A stretch of 64,000 nucleotides of DNA from a virus (lineage: Duplodnaviria > Heunggongvirae > Uroviricota > Caudoviricetes): IMG/VR virus record IMGVR_UViG_2740892229_000011, one strand, 5' to 3'. This document shows, piece by piece, positions 7,255-58,058 of this stretch. The stretch's first letter is position 1. Each line of letters starts with the position of its first letter. The notes beneath the pieces were generated by a model. The model saw only the letters and a program-made list of their open reading frames with translations, ran no database searches and was not told the origin of the DNA. Both the position numbers and the translations under genes were made by a program.

Positions 7255-7923
7255 ATGACCAAGATCTTTGTGGTTGGCGGCACAAAGGGCGGGCCTGGCA
7301 AATCCACCGTTGCCCAGCAAATTGCCGTTTGCCTGAAAGTCAAAAAGAAGAAGAAGGTTTATATTACCGATATAGATATTCAGCGCACGACAACGAGCTG
7401 GTGTGAAGACCGTCGACAGAACGAAGACCTTGAGCTGATTCCTTTTGCATACGTTCAGGATGACATCATTAAGCACCTAAAATCGCTTCAGGGTAGAGCT
7501 GAGTTTGTAGTGGTAGATGCTGGTGGCTTCGACTCCGAAATTCAGCGACAAGCGATGCTGATGGCTGACGTTATCATTATCCCGCTGCGTCCTAAGCGTC
7601 GTGATTTGAAATCTTTACGTGACATCGATCCTATTATCGACAATGTTCGCAATGTAAACGATAAAGTGAAGGTCCGCGCGGTCATGAACCAGTGCCCGGC
7701 TTTGCCATCACAAGTGTCTCGCATTCTGGCGGCTAAAGAGATTGTTGAGACGTTTGGCATCGAGTCTGCGCCAGTCAATCTATATAACCGCAACGTCTAT
7801 GATGATGCGGAAGAGTCTGGTCGTTCTATCTTTGAAATGACCGGTAGCGAGCGCGACAAAAAGGCGGAAGCCGAGTTTGAAGAATTTGTAGATTATCTGT
7901 TGAGTCTGGAGGAAGAAGAATAA
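7255..7923 (+). CDS. parA: ParA-type partition ATPase (small, type Ib-like)
   Basis: Deviant Walker A 'GGTKGGPGKST' at the N-terminus; 222 aa; followed by a small partner gene. Confidence 0.85.
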   Translation: MTKIFVVGGTKGGPGKSTVAQQIAVCLKVKKKKKVYITDIDIQRTTTSWCEDRRQNEDLELIPFAYVQDDIIKHLKSLQGRAEFVVVDAGGFDSEIQRQAMLMADVIIIPLRPKRRDLKSLRDIDPIIDNVRNVNDKVKVRAVMNQCPALPSQVSRILAAKEIVETFGIESAPVNLYNRNVYDDAEESGRSIFEMTGSERDKKAEAEFEEFVDYLLSLEEEE

Positions 7924-8282
7924 TGTCCATGAAAATGGGTGACCTAGCAAAGCGCAAAGAGCCTGATGCACCGGCTAAGAACACAACTCCTTTGCGCCAA
8001 CCAGTCAGACCACAGGGACGCCCGACTCGTGGCAAAGAGAAAATTAAAAGCCGCACAATGTCACTGGAAGACGAATACTTCGAACTGCTGGAGATGATGA
8101 AGTTCATCCCTCGCTTCGAGAAGTTCACTCGTTCTGACGTGATTCGAGCAGCCATTTTCCATCTGGCAGAGAAGTCACCGCAGGAAATCGAGGACATCGT
8201 GAAGCTTAACGAGGCGATCACAGCTGCCGACGTTACGATGCGTACCGATGAAATTAAACGAGAGTTGATGAAGAAAGGTTGA
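7923..8282 (+). CDS. Small partition partner (ParB/ParG-like centromere-binding protein)
   Basis: 119 aa, start overlaps parA stop; basic, apparently disordered N-terminus; position is diagnostic rather than sequence. Confidence 0.5.
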   Translation: MSMKMGDLAKRKEPDAPAKNTTPLRQPVRPQGRPTRGKEKIKSRTMSLEDEYFELLEMMKFIPRFEKFTRSDVIRAAIFHLAEKSPQEIEDIVKLNEAITAADVTMRTDEIKRELMKKG

Positions 8283-8333
8283 TTATATTGGGCGTTTGTT
8301 ACGCCCAATATATGAATTAAAGGATTGATACTA

Positions 8334-10028
8334 ATGGAATCGATAGAATCATTTCTAAAAAATTTTCTAGTTTCAGATCATCGGGTTGCCGTCATAAAAG
8401 GAGATTGGGGCGTTGGTAAAACTCATTATTGGAATAGTTTTTATACTAAGCATTCTGAAGGATTAGATTTTAATGCATATTCGTATGTTTCTTTGTTTGG
8501 GGTTAACTCTATTGGTGATATTAAAAAAGCTCTTTATCATTGTGCCACACCAATTAATGAAAAGAAATATAAAGAACTAATTTTATCTGAAACGGATCGA
8601 ACTATGATTCGTTATAGAAATGGGTTTTTGGGATGGTTGAAATACAACTCCTTGTCAAAATTTTTAATACATTTCGGAAAGAACGATTTTTTTGGGTTCA
8701 AAACAGATAACCTGCTGTCATCTCTTGAGTATAAATTTGTTAATAATTATTTGGTTTGTATTGATGATGTTGAAAGAAAAGGTAATTCGCTAGAAGTTAA
8801 AGAAATTATGGGGGTAATTGATGAATTGGCAAGAAGAAAAGGCTGCAAAGTTGTTCTAATTTTAAATGAAGATAATTTACATGATGAAACTGCAAAAAAA
8901 CAGTTTTTAGAGTACAGAGAAAAAGTAATTGATGTCGAAATAAAATACGATCCTACGCCTGAGAAGAACTTACGTAAAGTTTTTTATGAAACTGATTCTG
9001 ATTTTCTTTTGTTAAAAGTCTTAGCAAATGACTTAGACATTAAAAATATCCGTATATTAAATAAAATAAAAACATCTCTGGTTAATCTTAGGAATGAGCT
9101 AAGCTTGGCAGAGGATAAGGTTAGAGAAAGTTTTATCAATAGATTGGTTCTGTTTTCAGTGGTTTACTATTCTGGTGTTCCAGGTGTTGATTATGCCTTG
9201 TTTAAAGAATCAATTAAAAACATACATGTATTTGATTACATGTTAGATGATAAAAAGGATGATTCTGTATATTCATTTATTAATAGTCTTGATATTATTT
9301 ATGAACGAGCGGAAATTGCTTTCGATGATGACATAGATTTTTATCTCAAGAATGGTTATCTTTCTACTGAAAGCAATATTCGAGGTATAATAGAAGAAAA
9401 AAATAAACAATATAAAGAACACAAGGCTTTATGTGAGGTTAACAATGTTTGGGATATTTTTAGTGACTCATTCAAGGACAATGAATCTGAGTTTATTTCT
9501 AAGATAAAATGTGTAATTAACGACAATCTTTCACACATACCTGTTGCTCACTTCATAGGCTTGATTGATATCTTAAATAGATTGGAGATTGATTGTGATA
9601 GTTATATAGAGGCATATGCAGATGCCTTTGTTAGCCAAGATGATGCTTATACTGCTTTTCGGAATTTGTATGTAGAGATATTTGGTAACGAAAAGTTAGG
9701 TCTGCTAATTCAAAAAAAATTGATGGATAAGAAGCCTGAAGAGACTAATTTAGAGAATGTTTTATACAAAATAATTGAAGGCAAATTTAATCATAGTGAC
9801 ATAGCATATCTTAACAGTTTCTCTGAAGATGATTATTTAAAGTGGATATTATCCCGCAATCAGGATGCTTTGGATTTAGTGAGAAAGGGGTTGCTCAGAT
9901 TCAAAAGTATGCAAGAACTAACAGAAGAACAGCAAAAAATCACGAATAAAGCAATAGGTGCATTAACGAAACTGGCCTCTAGATCAAGTCTTAACAAACT
10001 ACGTGTGAGCAGATTGCTTAATAATTAA
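8334..10028 (+). CDS. KAP-family P-loop NTPase
   Basis: Walker A 'GDWGVGKTHYWN' and Walker B-like 'LVCIDDVER'; about 565 aa; conspicuously AT-rich codon usage compared with neighbours; bounded by hairpins at 8287-8309 and 10038-10091. Confidence 0.6.
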   Translation: MESIESFLKNFLVSDHRVAVIKGDWGVGKTHYWNSFYTKHSEGLDFNAYSYVSLFGVNSIGDIKKALYHCATPINEKKYKELILSETDRTMIRYRNGFLGWLKYNSLSKFLIHFGKNDFFGFKTDNLLSSLEYKFVNNYLVCIDDVERKGNSLEVKEIMGVIDELARRKGCKVVLILNEDNLHDETAKKQFLEYREKVIDVEIKYDPTPEKNLRKVFYETDSDFLLLKVLANDLDIKNIRILNKIKTSLVNLRNELSLAEDKVRESFINRLVLFSVVYYSGVPGVDYALFKESIKNIHVFDYMLDDKKDDSVYSFINSLDIIYERAEIAFDDDIDFYLKNGYLSTESNIRGIIEEKNKQYKEHKALCEVNNVWDIFSDSFKDNESEFISKIKCVINDNLSHIPVAHFIGLIDILNRLEIDCDSYIEAYADAFVSQDDAYTAFRNLYVEIFGNEKLGLLIQKKLMDKKPEETNLENVLYKIIEGKFNHSDIAYLNSFSEDDYLKWILSRNQDALDLVRKGLLRFKSMQELTEEQQKITNKAIGALTKLASRSSLNKLRVSRLLNN

Positions 10029-21522: not shown

Positions 21523-21597
21523 GATGGTGTAGCTCAGCGGTAGAGCAGTTGGCTGTTAACCAACTGGTCGGTGGTTCGAATCCACCCACCATCGCCA
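21523..21597 (+). tRNA. tRNA-Asn (anticodon GTT)
   Basis: Manual fold: acceptor gatggtg/caccatc, D-arm 'agctcagcggtagagc', anticodon arm gttgg-CTGTTAA-ccaac, T-arm ggtgg-ttcgaat-ccacc, 3' CCA encoded. Confidence 0.7.
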
Positions 21598-21602
21598 ATT
21601 TA

Positions 21603-21689
21603 GGGGAGTTAGTCCGTAGGGGCAGCGGGGTAGACTGTAAATCTACTGTCATTGCGACTCGGGTGGTTCGACTCCATCACTCCCCACCA
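21603..21689 (+). tRNA. tRNA-Tyr (anticodon GTA), long variable arm
   Basis: Acceptor ggggagt/actcccc, anticodon arm gtaga-CTGTAAA-tctac, long variable arm, T-loop 'ttcgact', CCA encoded. Confidence 0.6.
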
Positions 21690-21693
21690 AATT

Positions 21694-21769
21694 GCCGGTT
21701 TAGCTCAGTTGGTAGAGCGCCTGCCTTGTAAGCAGGATGTCAGCGGTTCGATCCCGTTAACCGGCACCA
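21694..21769 (+). tRNA. tRNA-Thr (anticodon TGT)
   Basis: Acceptor gccggtt/aaccggc, D-arm 'agctcagttggtagagc', anticodon arm cctgc-CTTGTAA-gcagg, T-loop 'ttcgatc', CCA encoded. Confidence 0.7.
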
Positions 21770-22089
21770 ACACAACAGGTAAGAGCATTGGGCGAATCGG
21801 CGATACTGACCCACAAGCCCGTAAATCGATAGAGTCAGACCAGTGCTCTTACCGTTGTGAGGAAGTGCAGCTCTTTGAAGCAACCAGAAGATAAGCATCT
21901 GGCTTCACAACACAACGATAAGATCATTACGGTTAATCGTCGTTCATGTGCACAATGACTGGTCGAAAGGTAGTGATCTTACCGTTGTGATGAATGCACA
22001 GGCTGATGTGCCGCAACTACAGTAGTGCGCGCTTTGCGGGGCTTGCTACAACCCTGTGTCGGAGTTCAGCACCGACCATCACAATAGCT

Positions 22090-22176
22090 GGAGAGTAGGG
22101 AGCATGGTGCTCAAGCGGTCTTGAAATCCGTCCCATTGTGCAAACGATGATGGTTCGATTCCATTACTCTCCGCCA
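22090..22176 (+). tRNA. Probable tRNA-Ser (anticodon TGA), long variable arm
   Basis: Acceptor ggagagt/actctcc, anticodon loop 'cttgaaa', T-arm gatgg-ttcgatt-ccatt, 3' gCCA; D-arm and anticodon stem pair imperfectly, so less certain. Confidence 0.45.
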
Positions 22177-35362: not shown

Positions 35363-37702
35363 ATGGCAAAAGGAAAATCCGCACTGGCACTTGCTCTGAA
35401 AAAGAAAATCGGTAGCAACGACGAAATTCAGAAAGTAACTCATTGGATTGATACAGGCTTTCCACCGTTAAACAAAGCTATTTCTGGTCGTTACGATGGC
35501 GGCTTCCCATGTGGTCGTATCGTCGAAGTATTCGGTCCTCCAAGTGCAGGGAAATGTGTTACCGCAGACACCATGCTGCTGACGGAGCGTGGAATGGTAA
35601 CAGTGAAAGAGTTGTTTGAGATTGAAGGGTACAAAGCGACATGCACTACTCGCGATGTAGAGCATAACGTTGGACTCATCAATGAAAATGGCGTGATAGA
35701 GAAGACCTCACACCTGACATGGAACAACCGTCGCAAATTCAAGCGTATTAAGCTGGCATCAGGCGGTTATATCGAGGCTACGTTCCGTCACCCAATCCGT
35801 GTGGTTGACGACTTAGGTAATGTCGTCTGGCGACATGCTGAAAAAATCAGTGTAGGCGACACGATTCCTTCAATGGTTGGCACACATCAATTCGGCGATC
35901 AGCACCTGGATGCCAATATCGCAAAACTGATGGGCTATTTAATTGCTGACGGATACGTGGCCTCTGAAAATTCAGTGAATTTTTCTAACACAGATCCTTT
36001 CATCAAGGATGAGTACTACCGCCTCATTTCGCTGGTATCAGACAAGATGCCAGTTACGAGAAAACATAACGGCTCGGAAGACCATGTGCTGTTTAGCAAA
36101 GAGGTGCGTTCGCTGCTTTTTAAAGAATATGGTCTGGAGTATGAGAAAGCTGCTGGCAAGCAGGTTCCGTTGAGTGTGCGTCGCGCCAATAGCGAGGCTC
36201 AAATTGCATTCCTTCGCGGCTACTTTGAGCTGGAATGCCACGTCAATGATGGTCGCTGCATTGAGGTTGTGAGCGCGAGTGGGCTGCTGCTACAGCAAAT
36301 TCGCCTCATGCTCCTGAATCTGGGGATTACGTCAACTATCTCTGAAAAACACGTCGCGGGTTATGAAAATACATATTACCGGCTGTCATTCAGTGGCTCT
36401 AATTACGACCTTTTTCTGTCAACGATTGGTTTCGAATCTCCGGCACGTTTATCAGTGGCAACCAAACGGGACATTGGTTTTGACCGCACTTACTCAGGCT
36501 ATGTTCCGCACATCAGCGGCTTAGTGAAATCACTCTACGAGTCGCTCACCAAGACCACCCGTGAAGACTACGCTCTGGTAGACCACGTTATTGGCCGCGG
36601 CGATCGTGTCGGAATAGACAAACTGCGAGAAATCTATGTCTCCTTCATTGGCAGAAAGAATCGTTTTAACGAGCATCTGTTTGCACAACTGGCAGCGGTA
36701 ATTGGCTCTAACTTGTTCTACGACGAAGTCGTGGCTATTGAGGAAGGTGAAGCACCAACGTTCGACGTAGCGATGCCGGAAACACACTCTTTCTGGTCTA
36801 ACGGGATTATCAGCCACAACACATTCCTTGCAACAGCAGCGATGATCTCCGCTCAAAAACAAGATGGTCTGGCGGTATTCCTCGATCATGAAAACAGTTT
36901 TGACGTTGGCCTGGCTGTAGCCAATGGCCTGAACGCAGATGAGGATGACGGTCAGTGGGTATACAAGCAGCCAGATACCTTCGAAGACTCTGTAGAGTTG
37001 ATCGGCACAATACTTAAATTGGTTCGTGATGAAGAGCTTATCCCCGAATCAGCACCTATCTGTATCGTGGCTGACTCACTTGCGTCTATGGTTCCGAACT
37101 CCAAAGCCGAGAAGTTCGAAAAGATGGCTGAAGGCACTGCCAAAGACAAAGATCAGCTAAACATGAACGACAATACGGCACTGGCTCGTGCGACAAGTGC
37201 GAACTTCCCTACTCTGGCTTTGTGGGCACGCAAATACAACGCCTGCATCATCTTCTTGAATCAGGTTCGCACAAAAATCGGTGTAATGTTTGGCGACCCT
37301 ACTACGTCGCCAGGTGGAGATTCACCGAAGTTCTACGCTTCTGTACGTATCCGTCTTGGTGCATCGGTGATGAAGGATGGTAAAGAGAAGATCGGCCAGG
37401 ACGTAGGCGCAGAATGCATCAAAAACAAAGTTGCACCACCGTATGGCAAATGCACCTGGAAATTCTACTTCGATCCTACTCGTGGCCTCGACGTTATCGA
37501 ATCGCTCGTCGAGTACATGCTGGAAGAAGGATACCTGCCAAAGAACGCCAGCGGGCGAGTTGAAATTGGTGACAAGAAATACACCAAATCGCAGATCGTC
37601 GAGATGTATCGGGAGAAGCCACTGGCTGAAATCATTGCGGCTTTGCAGGCAATCGACGACCGAAGAGCAAAAGACAACCCCACCGAGTCAGTAGAAGAGT
37701 AA
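35363..37702 (+). CDS. recA: RecA-family recombinase interrupted by an in-frame intein
   Basis: N-extein ends with P-loop 'GPPSAGK'; C-extein contains RecA signatures 'IIFLNQVRTKIGVMFGDPTTSPGGDSPKFYASVRIRLG'; exteins total about 357 aa, the size of a RecA. Confidence 0.8.
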   Translation: MAKGKSALALALKKKIGSNDEIQKVTHWIDTGFPPLNKAISGRYDGGFPCGRIVEVFGPPSAGKCVTADTMLLTERGMVTVKELFEIEGYKATCTTRDVEHNVGLINENGVIEKTSHLTWNNRRKFKRIKLASGGYIEATFRHPIRVVDDLGNVVWRHAEKISVGDTIPSMVGTHQFGDQHLDANIAKLMGYLIADGYVASENSVNFSNTDPFIKDEYYRLISLVSDKMPVTRKHNGSEDHVLFSKEVRSLLFKEYGLEYEKAAGKQVPLSVRRANSEAQIAFLRGYFELECHVNDGRCIEVVSASGLLLQQIRLMLLNLGITSTISEKHVAGYENTYYRLSFSGSNYDLFLSTIGFESPARLSVATKRDIGFDRTYSGYVPHISGLVKSLYESLTKTTREDYALVDHVIGRGDRVGIDKLREIYVSFIGRKNRFNEHLFAQLAAVIGSNLFYDEVVAIEEGEAPTFDVAMPETHSFWSNGIISHNTFLATAAMISAQKQDGLAVFLDHENSFDVGLAVANGLNADEDDGQWVYKQPDTFEDSVELIGTILKLVRDEELIPESAPICIVADSLASMVPNSKAEKFEKMAEGTAKDKDQLNMNDNTALARATSANFPTLALWARKYNACIIFLNQVRTKIGVMFGDPTTSPGGDSPKFYASVRIRLGASVMKDGKEKIGQDVGAECIKNKVAPPYGKCTWKFYFDPTRGLDVIESLVEYMLEEGYLPKNASGRVEIGDKKYTKSQIVEMYREKPLAEIIAALQAIDDRRAKDNPTESVEE
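35555..36820 (+). other. Intein (about 422 aa) with LAGLIDADG homing-endonuclease domain, inserted in the RecA P-loop
   Basis: Begins with Cys ('K|CVTADTMLL'), ends 'IISHN' followed by Thr (+1); LAGLIDADG-type blocks 'LMGYLIADGYV' and 'FLRGYFELECHV'. Confidence 0.7.
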
Positions 37703-40228: not shown

Positions 40229-40440
40229 TGGCATTAACACTGGCAGGTCTGGAAATCGAGAAAACAAGCGGCTACTGGCGTGCTAAGGGTTTCAAGCAGC
40301 CTGGCATTCTTGAGCGTCTGGAACGTGAAGATGGGTATATCGTCCACCAGCGGCGTGAATGGCGTATGTACGATCCAGAAACAGGAAAACTGACTACAAA
40401 AGCCGGAACACTTTGGGGTCTGTTAAAGAAAATACACTAA
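40228..40440 (+). CDS. Hypothetical small protein
   Basis: 70-aa ORF overlapping previous stop. Confidence 0.35.
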   Translation: MALTLAGLEIEKTSGYWRAKGFKQPGILERLEREDGYIVHQRREWRMYDPETGKLTTKAGTLWGLLKKIH

Positions 40441-40479
40441 ATGCAAACTGACTGCGGTACGTTCCGCAGTCATATTTCA

Positions 40480-41030
40480 TAGTCGTCACCGCTGACAGCA
40501 TACACAATCAACTACCGCTGATAGCATATCGAGAGTCTATCTCACCGCTCACAGCATACTTTACTCGATTTTTTACCGCTGACAGCATACTTAAGACATT
40601 GCATGAATAATGTGTACCGGTATGGGTATAACCAGAACAAAATTACCGCTGGCAGCATACGAAGGTCTGACATATACCATTAATTACCGCTGATAGCATA
40701 TCCAAACAAAAATTCCTCAATAAAACACCGCTGACAGCATACGTTCTATCAGGGAGCAGCAGGCAATAAATGCCTTTCACTACAAGCAATCAGCGCAATA
40801 GCAATAGAATGTTAGTGAGCGCAAACCTATATGGAATGCACTCTTCGAGGTTAGTAACCACTGGGGAGGTATGACAGAGCATTGAGTGGTGATAGATGAT
40901 TTACCGCCCACAGCATACGTTCATCTCACTATACCGCTGGTAGCATATATTTAACCGTTTACAGCATACTTTTCAGAAAAATAGCCGCTGATAGCATACA
41001 TTTCACCGCTGACAGCATATCAAAGCAGTT
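40480..41030. repeat. Iteron array downstream of repA (incA-like copy-control locus); about 12 copies of a 16-bp repeat
   Basis: Repeats of consensus 'ACCGCTGACAGCATAC' (variants accgctgatagcatat, accgctggcagcatac, etc.) at irregular 25-45 bp spacing, with a break at about 40760-40900. Confidence 0.8.
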
Positions 41031-42114
41031 TGAGACTATTGGAAAGGATCTCAATCATCTTGATATTTTCAGGCGTCAAATTCTGCGAAAGTTCGGTTAT
41101 CTTGTTGATAATGTTCTGTTTGGCATCAATTTCCCCAGCTTTCTCATCTAGTTTTTTGGGTTCGATGTCTTCAGGTTTTGGCGGTGCGACTTTGAGTTTT
41201 GGATTGCGGCTGTGAATCTGGATATAGATCGACCGCCCTCGCTTAATCTCGCTGTATTCGAGATAACCCAAATCTTGGAGAGCTTTTAAGCCGTTGCGTA
41301 TAGTCTGATTCTGCGAGCTGACATTCCTGCTACTCAAATTGAGTCGCGCACGCAATCGAGCAAGCGATACCGGCGCAGGCTTGGTTGGAAGACTTTCGAT
41401 GAAGGTGTACAGAGCCTGTGCTGTTTCTTTGCGTGGTAGCTTATTGATAACCTTTAACTGCAAAAGAACCTTATGGTCAAAGCGATATAGTTCGGCCAGC
41501 TTCGGTTCTGCATAGAACACCACCGTATCTTTCTGCTCGTTGTAGTCCACGCTATTGATGAGGTGCACCATCAGAAGCGAGATCTTGTTAGAGCCGTCGA
41601 CGTTCTTTTCTTCATACGTTCTCTGGAAAGACAGAGTTGTACGCATGATCTTCAAAAGACTGTTTGTAAGCCGGTCGCGGAGTGTTTTGCGGATCTGTGA
41701 CGATGGATAGCCACAAAACTTCGCAAATTTCGTGATGCTTAACTCGACACGACCGTTAGGTTCGCCGTATTCTGCCAGCGAACGCACAACGCCCACCCAC
41801 GTTTTGAAATCATGATCCATGTCGAGACGAGGACCGGTTATCTTGATATCGGAATAGCCTTCAGAACGGGCTACTTCGAGCTGAACAAGCTCCTTTGAAG
41901 CATCGATCTCATTTGGCTTGTTACGCTTGCTGTATTTTGTCCCCTTGAGCGTGGGCACGAACAATCCCAGCCGCATCAACGCAATTGGTTGGACTGTATT
42001 GTTGCTATTAGGGACAAGTTCCCCTGTGTACAATTCAAGGGAACCTTCTTCAAAGTTGTCGAGATTATCTTCTACTTCTTTGTTATTTTTACCTTTTTTA
42101 TTTTTTGTGGACAT
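41020..42114 (-). CDS. repA: Plasmid replication initiator RepA (iteron-binding)
   Basis: About 365-aa ORF flanked on both sides by the same iterons; start placed at ATG 42114 ('MSTKNKKGKNNK') because the upstream 40 codons of the listed ORF read through the iterons. Confidence 0.7.
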   Translation of the reverse strand: MSTKNKKGKNNKEVEDNLDNFEEGSLELYTGELVPNSNNTVQPIALMRLGLFVPTLKGTKYSKRNKPNEIDASKELVQLEVARSEGYSDIKITGPRLDMDHDFKTWVGVVRSLAEYGEPNGRVELSITKFAKFCGYPSSQIRKTLRDRLTNSLLKIMRTTLSFQRTYEEKNVDGSNKISLLMVHLINSVDYNEQKDTVVFYAEPKLAELYRFDHKVLLQLKVINKLPRKETAQALYTFIESLPTKPAPVSLARLRARLNLSSRNVSSQNQTIRNGLKALQDLGYLEYSEIKRGRSIYIQIHSRNPKLKVAPPKPEDIEPKKLDEKAGEIDAKQNIINKITELSQNLTPENIKMIEILSNSLKLL

Positions 42115-42124
42115 GTGGACACCT

Positions 42125-42360
42125 TTGTCATTCAACCGCTGACAGCATACTTGATTTGCCGCTGACAGAATACCAAAAACAGTTGGCAGCATACGGTGAA
42201 CCGCTGACAGACTATCAATTACCGCTGACAGCATACATGAACATGGCTTCAGACCAGTCGTGGCGCGGCTTACAGCGATCGGGGATCTTATTTGATCTAT
42301 ACAAGGATCTATCTATGGATCTCTTTATTAGGATCTATCCTGTGGATATGTGAATAATTA
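42125..42360. promoter_or_regulatory. Replication origin (P1 oriR-like): iterons, GATC-containing heptamer repeats and DnaA-box-like site
   Basis: Four to five iterons (42128-42240: 'accgctgacagcatac', 'ccgctgacagaatacc', 'accgctgacagcatac'...), then repeated 'ggatct' units each containing GATC (42280-42340), then 'tgtggatat' (about 42341-42349) resembling a DnaA box. Confidence 0.65.
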
Positions 42361-57464: not shown

Positions 57465-58058
57465 ATGATTGCAGCCGAAAAAATCAAACAGCGAAAGCGC
57501 GACAACTCTCTTCGTGACCTCTGGAGAACACCTGATTGGCTGTTTTCTGCCATTCAACGTTATCTTGGAGTGACATTTGATGTTGACGTTGCCTGCAACA
57601 AGGACAATGCAAAGCTGCCTATTTTCATAGGCGTTGAGCGCGATGCTTTGAAATCTGAATGGGGGCAGCCAGGTACAATTGCCTTCCTCAATCCACCCTA
57701 CTCCAAAATCTCCCCCTGGATTGATGCGGCTATACGTGAGCAGGCTCGCGGAGTTACAACAGTGATGCTAATTCCTCAATCCCTCGATACAAAGTGGTAT
57801 GAGCGTGCAACAGAGTGTGCGAATGAGACGATTATTCTGTCTGGTGGCCGCGTAGCGTTTGTCGAGCCTGACGTCAATTTGGGTCAGGTAGAAGTAAACA
57901 TCAACCCCGGTGGCAGTATGCTCGTTGTTTTTCGAGGATTCTGTCAGGACGCTGGGCACTCTATAAGCAAGATCCCTTTGGACGTCATGAAAAGTCTGGG
58001 AGGGTATGATCCTGCGAATGTGATCAGGAAAAAAAGACCATCAAAGAAGGCTGCTTAG
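57465..58058 (+). CDS. Phage-type DNA N6-adenine methyltransferase (Dam-like)
   Basis: 'FLNPPYSKISPWIDAA' (NPPY catalytic motif); 197 aa. Confidence 0.7.
   Translation: MIAAEKIKQRKRDNSLRDLWRTPDWLFSAIQRYLGVTFDVDVACNKDNAKLPIFIGVERDALKSEWGQPGTIAFLNPPYSKISPWIDAAIREQARGVTTVMLIPQSLDTKWYERATECANETIILSGGRVAFVEPDVNLGQVEVNINPGGSMLVVFRGFCQDAGHSISKIPLDVMKSLGGYDPANVIRKKRPSKKAA

Follow-up and report, generated by a model that had tools for sequence, protein, structure and literature searches.

How does the phage whose DNA includes the 64-kb stretch analyzed here (the window) persist in its host, and to which family of replicons does the repeat-rich segment around its repA gene belong? A first-pass annotation had read this segment as having the oriR-repA-incA organization of P1-type plasmid prophages. 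Judged by its sequence, the region from 40488 to 42357 is best explained as the replicon by which an SSU5-like phage-plasmid is maintained as a plasmid, a member of the family of iteron systems that includes P1 RepA and RepFIB, a reading to which we assign a probability of about 90%.

The segment contains two sets of a 16-nt iteron, ACCGCTGACAGCATAC. A scan of the 64 kb allowing up to three mismatches returned 19 matches against 0.43 expected (the largest number in any shuffle was 3), and 17 of the 19, every copy on the plus strand, make up the array. These 17 copies score 19.8-28.3 bits against a weight matrix, and no other site in the window exceeds 15.1 bits. Twelve of them lie downstream of repA (40488-41020) and five upstream (42135-42236), which bears out the estimates of about 12 and 4-5 copies made in the first-pass annotation. 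The downstream, incA-like array consists of a distal cluster of seven iterons (40488-40742, plus strand; starts at 40488, 40514, 40544, 40575, 40645, 40686, and 40727; 22-28 bits each), an iteron-free spacer of 160 bp (40743-40902), and a proximal cluster of five (40903-41020, plus strand; starts at 40903, 40933, 40954, 40984, and 41005 in the repeat and motif scans), the last of which adjoins the repA stop codon. The spacer has no matrix match of 6 bits or more, and an Rfam search of the replicon region including it detected no RNA family; likewise, the matrix revealed no degenerate iterons concealed within the 70-bp and 160-bp gaps of the array. The five origin (incC-like) iterons, placed on the plus strand by the same repeat and motif scans, are spaced at 23/21/21/21 bp, or roughly two turns of the helix. 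Among 124 plasmid records, 120 have the complete 600-bp downstream array, and phage PhiR41_1 has an exact 87-bp deletion that removes the first three iterons of the distal cluster. Frequent variation of iteron number among relatives was considered and rejected on these counts, the 87-bp deletion being seen only in PhiR41_1.

Next to the origin iterons is a G+C-rich spacer (42237-42276; GC ~55%) with the block GTGGCGCGGC, delimited by alignment with P1 and SSU5; P1 oriR also contains this block. Adjoining it is an A+T-rich block (42277-42340; GC 35%) with six GATC (Dam) sites, found by motif scan and P1 alignment, which start at 42277, 42284, 42294, 42306, 42318, and 42332 and comprise five GATCT and one CGATCG. 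They form the densest 60-bp GATC cluster in the window (42277-42335; window mean, 4.3 per kb), a density reached in 0 of 300 shuffles, and the block is presumed to be the unwinding and SeqA/Dam control region. At the outer edge, the motif scan and the P1 alignment place two overlapping DnaA boxes on the minus strand (42341-42357): ATATCCACA (42341-42349), which matches the DnaA box TTATNCACA at 8 of 9 positions, and the perfect box TTATTCACA (42349-42357), with an overlap of 1 nt. Only three perfect DnaA boxes occur in the whole window. The GATC cluster of the first-pass annotation thus stands, with six sites rather than "four or five"; its DnaA-box-like "tgtggatat" is recovered as ATATCCACA, but it is not a single box, as the perfect TTATTCACA overlaps it. 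The non-iteron origin DNA (42248-42357) has 72% identity with P1 oriR and 70.5% with the SSU5 origin; for the iteron block, the corresponding values are 43% and 33%.

Between the two sets of iterons, on the minus strand, lies repA. Its longest ORF, of 404 aa from the ATG at 42234, runs through the origin iterons; the ATG at 42114, preceded by AAGGTG, is the likely start, giving a protein of 364 aa (41020-42114) that Pfam, homology, and predicted structure point to as an iteron-binding replication initiator. RepA matches PF01051 Rep3_N (E 3.9e-9; 37.5 bits versus a cutoff of 22.4), a domain carried by 120 of 120 homologues among the matches listed. It is 46% identical to P1 RepA over 278 aa (E 4e-86), and tblastn also matches the repA genes of P1 and P7. 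The comparison with P1/P7 proposed in the first-pass annotation therefore yields a 46% identical homologue of P1 RepA; that annotation had also held that a RepA lacking similarity to iteron-binding initiators would speak against its reading, and as a true homologue of P1 RepA the protein shows such similarity. Identity is 48-52% to RepA of the SSU5 group (52% to that of SSU5 itself), 47-50% to RepFIB RepA in >4,500 plasmid records, many of them annotated as RepFIB, and 86% to RepA of the Klebsiella plasmid pKPHS1 over the full length, including the tails.

Pfam detected only the first winged-helix domain of RepA. As searches of PDB sequences, with RepA alone and with a six-sequence profile, returned nothing relevant, we turned to structure prediction and fold search. 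The AlphaFold model has a mean pLDDT of 70.5, with the core mostly at 75-92, a dip to ~55 near residues 210-230, and residues 1-41 and 309-329 below 50. Foldseek matched it to RctB domains 2-3 (E 7e-8), RepE (2z9o; 4e-5), and further to the Rep complexes 8ac8/8aan, pi (2nra), and TrfA, with modest TM-scores of 0.3-0.5. The model thus predicts a pair of winged-helix domains like that of RepE and pi. RctB is an iteron-type initiator, and ori2, the origin of Vibrio cholerae chromosome 2 on which it acts, depends on Dam and DnaA. Although it is the best structural match (Foldseek E 7e-8), RctB shows no detectable sequence similarity and only 11-14% identity in the structural alignment, a likeness of fold only, and is much larger than RepA, with extra domains.

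Read in the direction of repA, the order of parts is that found in P1: tandem DnaA boxes, GATC block, five origin iterons, repA, and downstream array. The correspondence with the annotated P1 record AF234172 is one for one and extends to the spacing of the origin iterons (22/21/21/21 in P1 incC versus 23/21/21/21 here). Copy 9 of P1 incA ends at the repA stop codon, which the last downstream iteron here likewise abuts. The five annotated P1 Dam sites all have aligned counterparts, the sixth GATC of the window aligning with a GACC in P1, and the two boxes align with TTATCCACATTATCCACT, which is annotated in P1 oriR as a tandem DnaA site. Every element listed in the oriR-repA-incA reading is thus present, and the annotated P1 replicon has its equivalent at the corresponding position. 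On the other hand, the P1 iteron is a 19-nt repeat, as against the 16-nt ACCGCTGACAGCATAC (the 43% block identity given above), and the replicon, though expected to operate in the manner of an IncY replicon, is not IncY, as it does not have the P1 iteron sequence. P1 incA has nine copies, six inverted and three direct, compared with 12 here, all direct and split by the 160-bp spacer; given these differences in number, orientation, and spacer, the pairing geometry could differ. P1 RepA has 286 aa versus 364 aa here, the latter with extra N- and C-terminal tails. In P1, parAB lies next to incA, whereas no partition genes adjoin the array here: the ORFs downstream of it are small, on the plus strand, and without a Pfam match, so that no parAB-parS is seen next to it, and the Pfam scan places a ParA/MinD-type ATPase at 7255-7923, ~33 kb from the replicon.

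The closest relatives are elements of the pKPHS1 type. pKPHS1 shares the 16-nt iteron consensus, with 14 sites in its first 3 kb, five of them exact; as here, all copies lie on one strand, and the five upstream copies are spaced at 21/21/21/23 bp. The Klebsiella relative has the same six-site GATC block and DnaA boxes, and Klebsiella phage vB_KpnS_p4727 carries the ACCGCTGACAGCATAC repeat too. The differences lie in the downstream iterons, nine in pKPHS1 (4+5) versus 12 here (7+5), and in the gap between the downstream clusters, ~70 bp (start-to-start, 87) versus 160 bp. The pKPHS1-type replicon has been named "IncpKPHS1," a group defined by >96% DNA identity to pKPHS1 repA, with only four iterons reported downstream of repA, fewer than the 5+9 that we count in pKPHS1 (Wang et al. 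2019, PMC6735626). With repA DNA 75.5% identical to that of pKPHS1, the present replicon falls outside IncpKPHS1 by repA identity, though the iteron motif is shared. MOB-suite types the pKPHS1-type replicon as IncFIB. The family is equally well named RepFIB: in RepFIB (IncFIB of F-type plasmids), repeats flank repA, and RepA has a long C-terminal tail, as here, but the iteron sequence differs, and the element carrying the replicon here is a phage-plasmid, not a conjugative plasmid of the F type. The SSU5/pHCM2/pLF82 group (including phage Cyrano) shares the phage-plasmid backbone, the gene neighborhood of repA, and a similar origin core with DnaA box, GATC block, and GC block. However, SSU5 iterons differ (about AACCACTGTAGAGAGTA), and in SSU5 the origin module is present twice in tandem and the downstream iterons point in both directions, neither of which is seen here. 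By RepA identity and iteron sequence, the replicon belongs neither to the RepA lineage of SSU5/pHCM2 nor to its iteron type.

The carrier is an SSU5/pHCM2-like, siphovirus-type phage-plasmid of Escherichia coli of ~110 kb, not a P1-type phage, and its backbone is unrelated to P1; thus, of the P1-type plasmid prophage proposed in the first-pass annotation, the replicon organization holds and the carrier does not. The carrier records (~110 kb) are circular plasmids with capsid, terminase, and tail genes, and the same replicon occurs in >120 public Escherichia/Shigella plasmids. For the identical plasmid record, a single replicon type is listed, MOB-suite rep_cluster_488; SSU5-supercommunity phage-plasmids have been typed as IncFIB (PMC7969092). 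A hairpin at 40449-40472, detected on both strands and also as an inverted repeat, with a 9-bp stem that includes six G-C pairs, resembles a bidirectional terminator, a function it may have; it divides the replicon from an upstream plus-strand operon whose last ORF ends at 40440. Compared with the Klebsiella relative, the third codon positions of repA are only 46% identical, while the iteron consensus, five-iteron origin, six GATC sites, GC block, and DnaA boxes are conserved, that relative having TTATCCACTTATCCAC at the DnaA-box position. This pattern indicates purifying selection on RepA and on the cis elements.

We observe the elements, their order and statistics, their conservation, and the homology of both RepA and the origin DNA; each functional step that follows we infer by homology with P1, drawing on established knowledge. 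RepA monomers would fill the five origin iterons (42135-42236), and host DnaA would occupy the two boxes at the outer end (42341-42357). Acting jointly, RepA and DnaA would open the A+T-rich GATC block (42277-42340), allowing the host helicase to load. Firing would require all six GATC sites to be fully Dam-methylated; once hemimethylated after firing, these sites would be sequestered, preventing re-initiation straight away. When on the origin iterons, RepA may also repress the repA promoter. P1 incC contains PrepA, and by this analogy the repA promoter here is probably inside the origin iterons (42135-42236). A consensus scan upstream of repA found no minus-strand promoter; a relaxed scan gave TTGATA-19-TATGCT and TTGGTA-18-AAGTAT, both overlapping iterons, and as these are only weak candidates, we leave the placement at that strength. 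The 12 downstream iterons (40488-41020) would act like incA, titrating RepA and pairing with the origin iterons through RepA (handcuffing), which together would keep copy number low and set incompatibility. As the iterons are not those of P1, P7, or SSU5, the replicon is predicted to have an incompatibility specificity of another kind; since they have the sequence of the pKPHS1 lineage, this specificity is predicted to be shared with pKPHS1-type elements and distinct from those of P1/IncY, SSU5/pHCM2/pLF82, and classical IncFIB.

Other readings attribute less to the locus or divide it differently. That the repeats and motifs arose by chance or from low sequence complexity, and serve no biological purpose, can be dismissed almost entirely: there are 17 copies where 0.43 would be expected, no shuffle attained the density of the GATC cluster, and the region aligns with, and is homologous to, the characterized origin of P1. 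Somewhat more credible, yet improbable, is the view that only the upstream module is P1-like and that the downstream array (40488-41020) is a second origin, a centromere-like site, or another binding platform. The array is indeed larger than P1 incA, has all copies direct, and is interrupted by the 160-bp spacer, and SSU5 is a case of origin-module duplication within this group. However, its repeats are the same RepA iterons as those of the origin, and it abuts the repA stop codon, in the position of P1 incA. It has neither a GATC cluster nor a DnaA box, the sole near-box being a one-mismatch site at 40623, and the ParA-type ATPase is 33 kb away.

A relic replicon, in which repA and its iterons have ceased to function and the element is kept or replicated through another origin and its own DnaE, DnaB-like helicase, and primase, would accommodate the large replication machinery that the element encodes. 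Its likelihood is very low: repA is intact and has retained its amino-acid identity although synonymous sites approach saturation, the Escherichia and Klebsiella lineages have both conserved the cis elements, 120 of 124 records keep a complete array, and the identical plasmid has only one replicon type on record.

The replicon is real but ordinary, being present in >100 sequenced plasmids. The detailed map, with 5+12 iterons, six GATC sites, two DnaA boxes, and a corrected start for repA, is an improvement over public annotation but brings no new principle. We tentatively raise the possibility, which we consider doubtful, that such replicons are modular, with a conserved host-factor core (DnaA boxes, GATC block, GC block) and a diverged or swapped specificity cassette (the RepA DNA-binding surface and the iterons), and that the length of the control array is a tunable dial for copy number. 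The core retains ~70% DNA identity across the unrelated phage-plasmid lineages of P1, SSU5, and the present element. If the replicon is modular, a diverged or swapped cassette would let related phage-plasmids coexist; the exact three-iteron deletion of PhiR41_1 bears on the dial idea, and such a dial could feed heterogeneity in the copy number of cargo genes. Both ideas extend known P1 biology without overturning it. More generally, the replicon points to the window deriving from a phage that lives as a low-copy plasmid, for the maintenance of which ~1.9 kb should suffice. Elements of the pKPHS1 type are predicted to be incompatible with it and P1, SSU5/pLF82, and classical IncFIB plasmids to be compatible, which bears on replicon typing and on how phage-plasmids that carry resistance spread among Enterobacteriaceae.

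The replicon is organized around the 16-nt iteron ACCGCTGACAGCATAC, for which the 64-kb window contains 19 matches at three or fewer mismatches, whereas shuffling predicts 0.43 (at most 3 in any one shuffle). As proposed by the first-pass annotation, iterons lie on either side of repA: 17 of the 19 matches, every one on the plus strand, make up the two arrays. The downstream array (40488-41020) holds 12 iterons in clusters of seven (40488-40742) and five (40903-41020) with a repeat-free stretch of 160 bp between them, and the upstream array (42135-42236) holds five, with start-to-start distances of 23, 21, 21, and 21 bp. On a weight matrix built from these 17 iterons, the array copies score 19.8-28.3 bits, as against at most 15.1 bits anywhere else in the window; a scan of the gaps with this matrix recovered no hidden iterons of 6 bits or more. 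An iteron-like inverted sequence within the repA coding region (~41767-41782, minus strand; 13.3 bits, far under the true iterons) is 93% complementary to the iteron at 40647-40661. Every iteron core also contains a 9-bp palindrome, GCTGTCAGC (e.g., 40491-40499), which is lacking in P1 iterons; its 4-bp arms may be due to chance. Phage PhiR41_1 (PV340561.1) lacks exactly 87 bp, amounting to three iterons (window 40488-40574), with the junction within two identical repeats, and so has nine control iterons as against 12 in the window. Such loss is rare: of 124 plasmid records from the Escherichia lineage, 120 retain the 600-bp downstream array in full.

Beyond the upstream iterons, a G+C-rich spacer (42237-42276) leads into a block of 35% G+C with six GATC sites (starts at 42277, 42284, 42294, 42306, 42318, and 42332), rather than the four or five initially counted. 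This is the densest GATC cluster of the window: six per 60 bp was reached in none of 300 shuffles, and the Poisson expectation across the window is ~0.016. Two DnaA boxes follow on the minus strand, sharing one base. The box ATATCCACA (42341-42349), matching TTATNCACA at 8 of 9 positions, had been recognized in the first pass, which overlooked the perfect match TTATTCACA (42349-42357), one of only three perfect boxes in the window.

The fully annotated P1 record AF234172 served as the reference for the proposed oriR-repA-incA layout. There, in the direction of repA, a tandem DnaA site is followed by five Dam sites, five incC iterons spaced 22/21/21/21 bp that contain the repA promoter, repA itself, and nine incA iterons, the last of which ends at the repA stop. 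Parts of these types follow one another in the same order in the window, where an iteron likewise abuts the repA stop codon, which bears out the P1-type layout; promoter scans upstream of repA yielded no confident placement of its promoter. Each of the five Dam sites annotated in P1 aligns with one in the window, whose sixth GATC aligns with a P1 GACC, and the P1 site TTATCCACATTATCCACT aligns with the window DnaA boxes. Identity in the non-iteron part of the origin (42248-42357) reaches 72% with P1 oriR and 70.5% with the distal origin of phage SSU5, but in the iteron block it is only 43% and 33%, respectively. By these alignments, the host-factor half of the origin is conserved and the specificity half has diverged. 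The two replicons differ in iteron sequence and in the downstream array, which in P1 has nine copies (six inverted distal and three direct proximal) and in the window 12, all direct and split by the spacer. Moreover, P1 parAB abuts incA, whereas no par operon follows the window array. A candidate partition locus (7255-8282, plus strand) lies ~33 kb away and comprises a ParA/MinD-type ATPase (222 aa, 7255-7923) followed by a small partner ORF without a Pfam match (119 aa, 7923-8282). Adjoining these ParA-like genes is a KAP-family P-loop NTPase (567 aa, 8325-10028, plus strand; PF07693, E 1.8e-5). Coordinates projected from the E. coli plasmid NZ_CP027358.1 sit ~2 kb off in this region, so there is an indel between that plasmid and the window somewhere upstream of the replicon region.

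The arrays flank a single long ORF, which is on the minus strand. Its longest reading (404 aa, from the ATG at 42234) crosses the five upstream iterons, and RefSeq and GenBank annotate repA in this manner, at 404-405 aa, through the origin iterons (42115-42234, minus strand). The ATG at 42114 is more plausible, since it is preceded by AAGGTG as a putative ribosome-binding site, is the start used in PhiR41_1, and marks the onset of similarity to the pKPHS1 protein; repA is therefore taken as 41020-42114 (364 aa). RepA is clearly related to iteron-binding initiators, as the first-pass annotation presupposed. It matches Pfam Rep3_N (the initiator WH1 domain) above the curated cut-off (E 3.9e-9) and is 46% identical to P1 RepA over 278 residues (E 4e-86), 52% to SSU5 RepA, 86% to pKPHS1 RepA, and 47-50% to the RepA proteins of 4,500 plasmids or more, many of which carry a RepFIB annotation. 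It is longer than P1 RepA (286 aa), being extended by ~15-30 aa at the N-terminus and by a tail of ~55 aa at the C-terminus; SSU5 and classical RepFIB proteins have the same tail in outline. RepA had no matches when the PDB was searched by sequence. An AlphaFold model from 36 homologues (mean pLDDT 70.5; core mostly 75-92, dipping to ~55 near residues 210-230, tails disordered) had as its best Foldseek matches RctB domains 2-3 (7e-8), RepE (4e-5), the Rep-DNA complexes 8ac8 and 8aan, pi, and TrfA, all iteron-type initiators of winged-helix domains.

At 100% identity, the 2-kb replicon region is present in NZ_CP027358.1, a non-mobilizable 110-kb plasmid of MOB-suite rep_cluster_488, and it occurs at 95-100% identity in ~120 plasmids of Escherichia, Shigella, and E. 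albertii, including p09EL50 (NC_018651.1), and in three phage records, among them PhiR41_1. NZ_CP027358.1 encodes a major capsid protein, terminase, and tail proteins, along with DnaE, a DnaB-like helicase, primase, ligase, NrdAB, and thymidylate synthase, and the small genes beside repA are those of Salmonella phage SSU5. By these phage genes and repA neighbors, the carrier is an SSU5/pHCM2/pLF82-like phage-plasmid and not a P1-type phage. The literature describes related E. coli plasmids, p09EL50 among them, as pHCM2/pLF82-like (PMC3486847), and SSU5-supercommunity phage-plasmids have already been typed IncFIB (PMC7969092; bioRxiv 10.1101/2025.09.12.675607). Elsewhere, the window has four clustered tRNA genes (21523-22176, plus strand: Asn-GTT, Tyr-GTA, Thr-TGT, and Ser-TGA), three meeting the Rfam gathering score. 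A 2340-nt gene (~35363-37702, plus strand), a LAGLIDADG homing endonuclease in RefSeq and a 'RecA-like protein' in the PhiR41_1 record, may contain an intein.

SSU5 and pLF82 (phage Cyrano) have RepA proteins ~48-52% identical to that of the window and different iterons. SSU5 (JQ965645.1) carries two tandem origin modules of DnaA box, GATC block, and iterons upstream of repA (1780-2000 and 2155-2400); in the one nearer repA, the GATC sites have partly decayed. The Klebsiella plasmid pKPHS1 and phage vB_KpnS_p4727 share the 16-nt iteron of the window, which they carry five times upstream and nine times (4+5) downstream, on one strand throughout, and they keep the six GATC sites, GC block, and two DnaA boxes as in the window. 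Four iterons downstream of repA have been given for the pKPHS1 group (PMC6735626); our count in pKPHS1 is 5+9. Between the window and the Klebsiella phage, repA DNA is only 76% identical, and third-codon positions, at 46%, are near saturation. That the cis elements were retained despite this divergence speaks for purifying selection, and so for function. With repA DNA 75.5% identical to pKPHS1, the window falls outside 'IncpKPHS1' as defined by >96% identity (PMC6735626), yet the common iteron predicts shared incompatibility.

The mechanism proposed here draws on general knowledge of the P1 replicon, only the element map coming from AF234172. By this analogy, RepA monomers would fill the five origin iterons and DnaA would bind the flanking boxes, whereupon the GATC-rich A+T block would open and helicase would load. 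Firing would need Dam methylation, with hemimethylated sites sequestered afterward. RepA on the origin iterons would repress repA, and the downstream array, by titrating RepA and handcuffing the origin, would set a low copy number and incompatibility. P1 methylates its origin GATC sites with a methyltransferase of its own, Dmt; similarly, the window's Dam-family N6-adenine methyltransferase (197 aa, 57465-58058, plus strand; PF05869, E 1.7e-37) may act on the origin GATC sites of the element and might, speculatively, make their methylation independent of the host.

In sum, the original observation was confirmed and its interpretation supported, with corrections to carrier type, motif counts, and specificity lineage; function we infer from the sequence. 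The replicon itself is already known: public records annotate it as RepB/RepFIB-family, replicon schemes type it, and it is widespread. To this the present analysis contributes a full cis-element map, a correction of the repA start, and a prediction of incompatibility.
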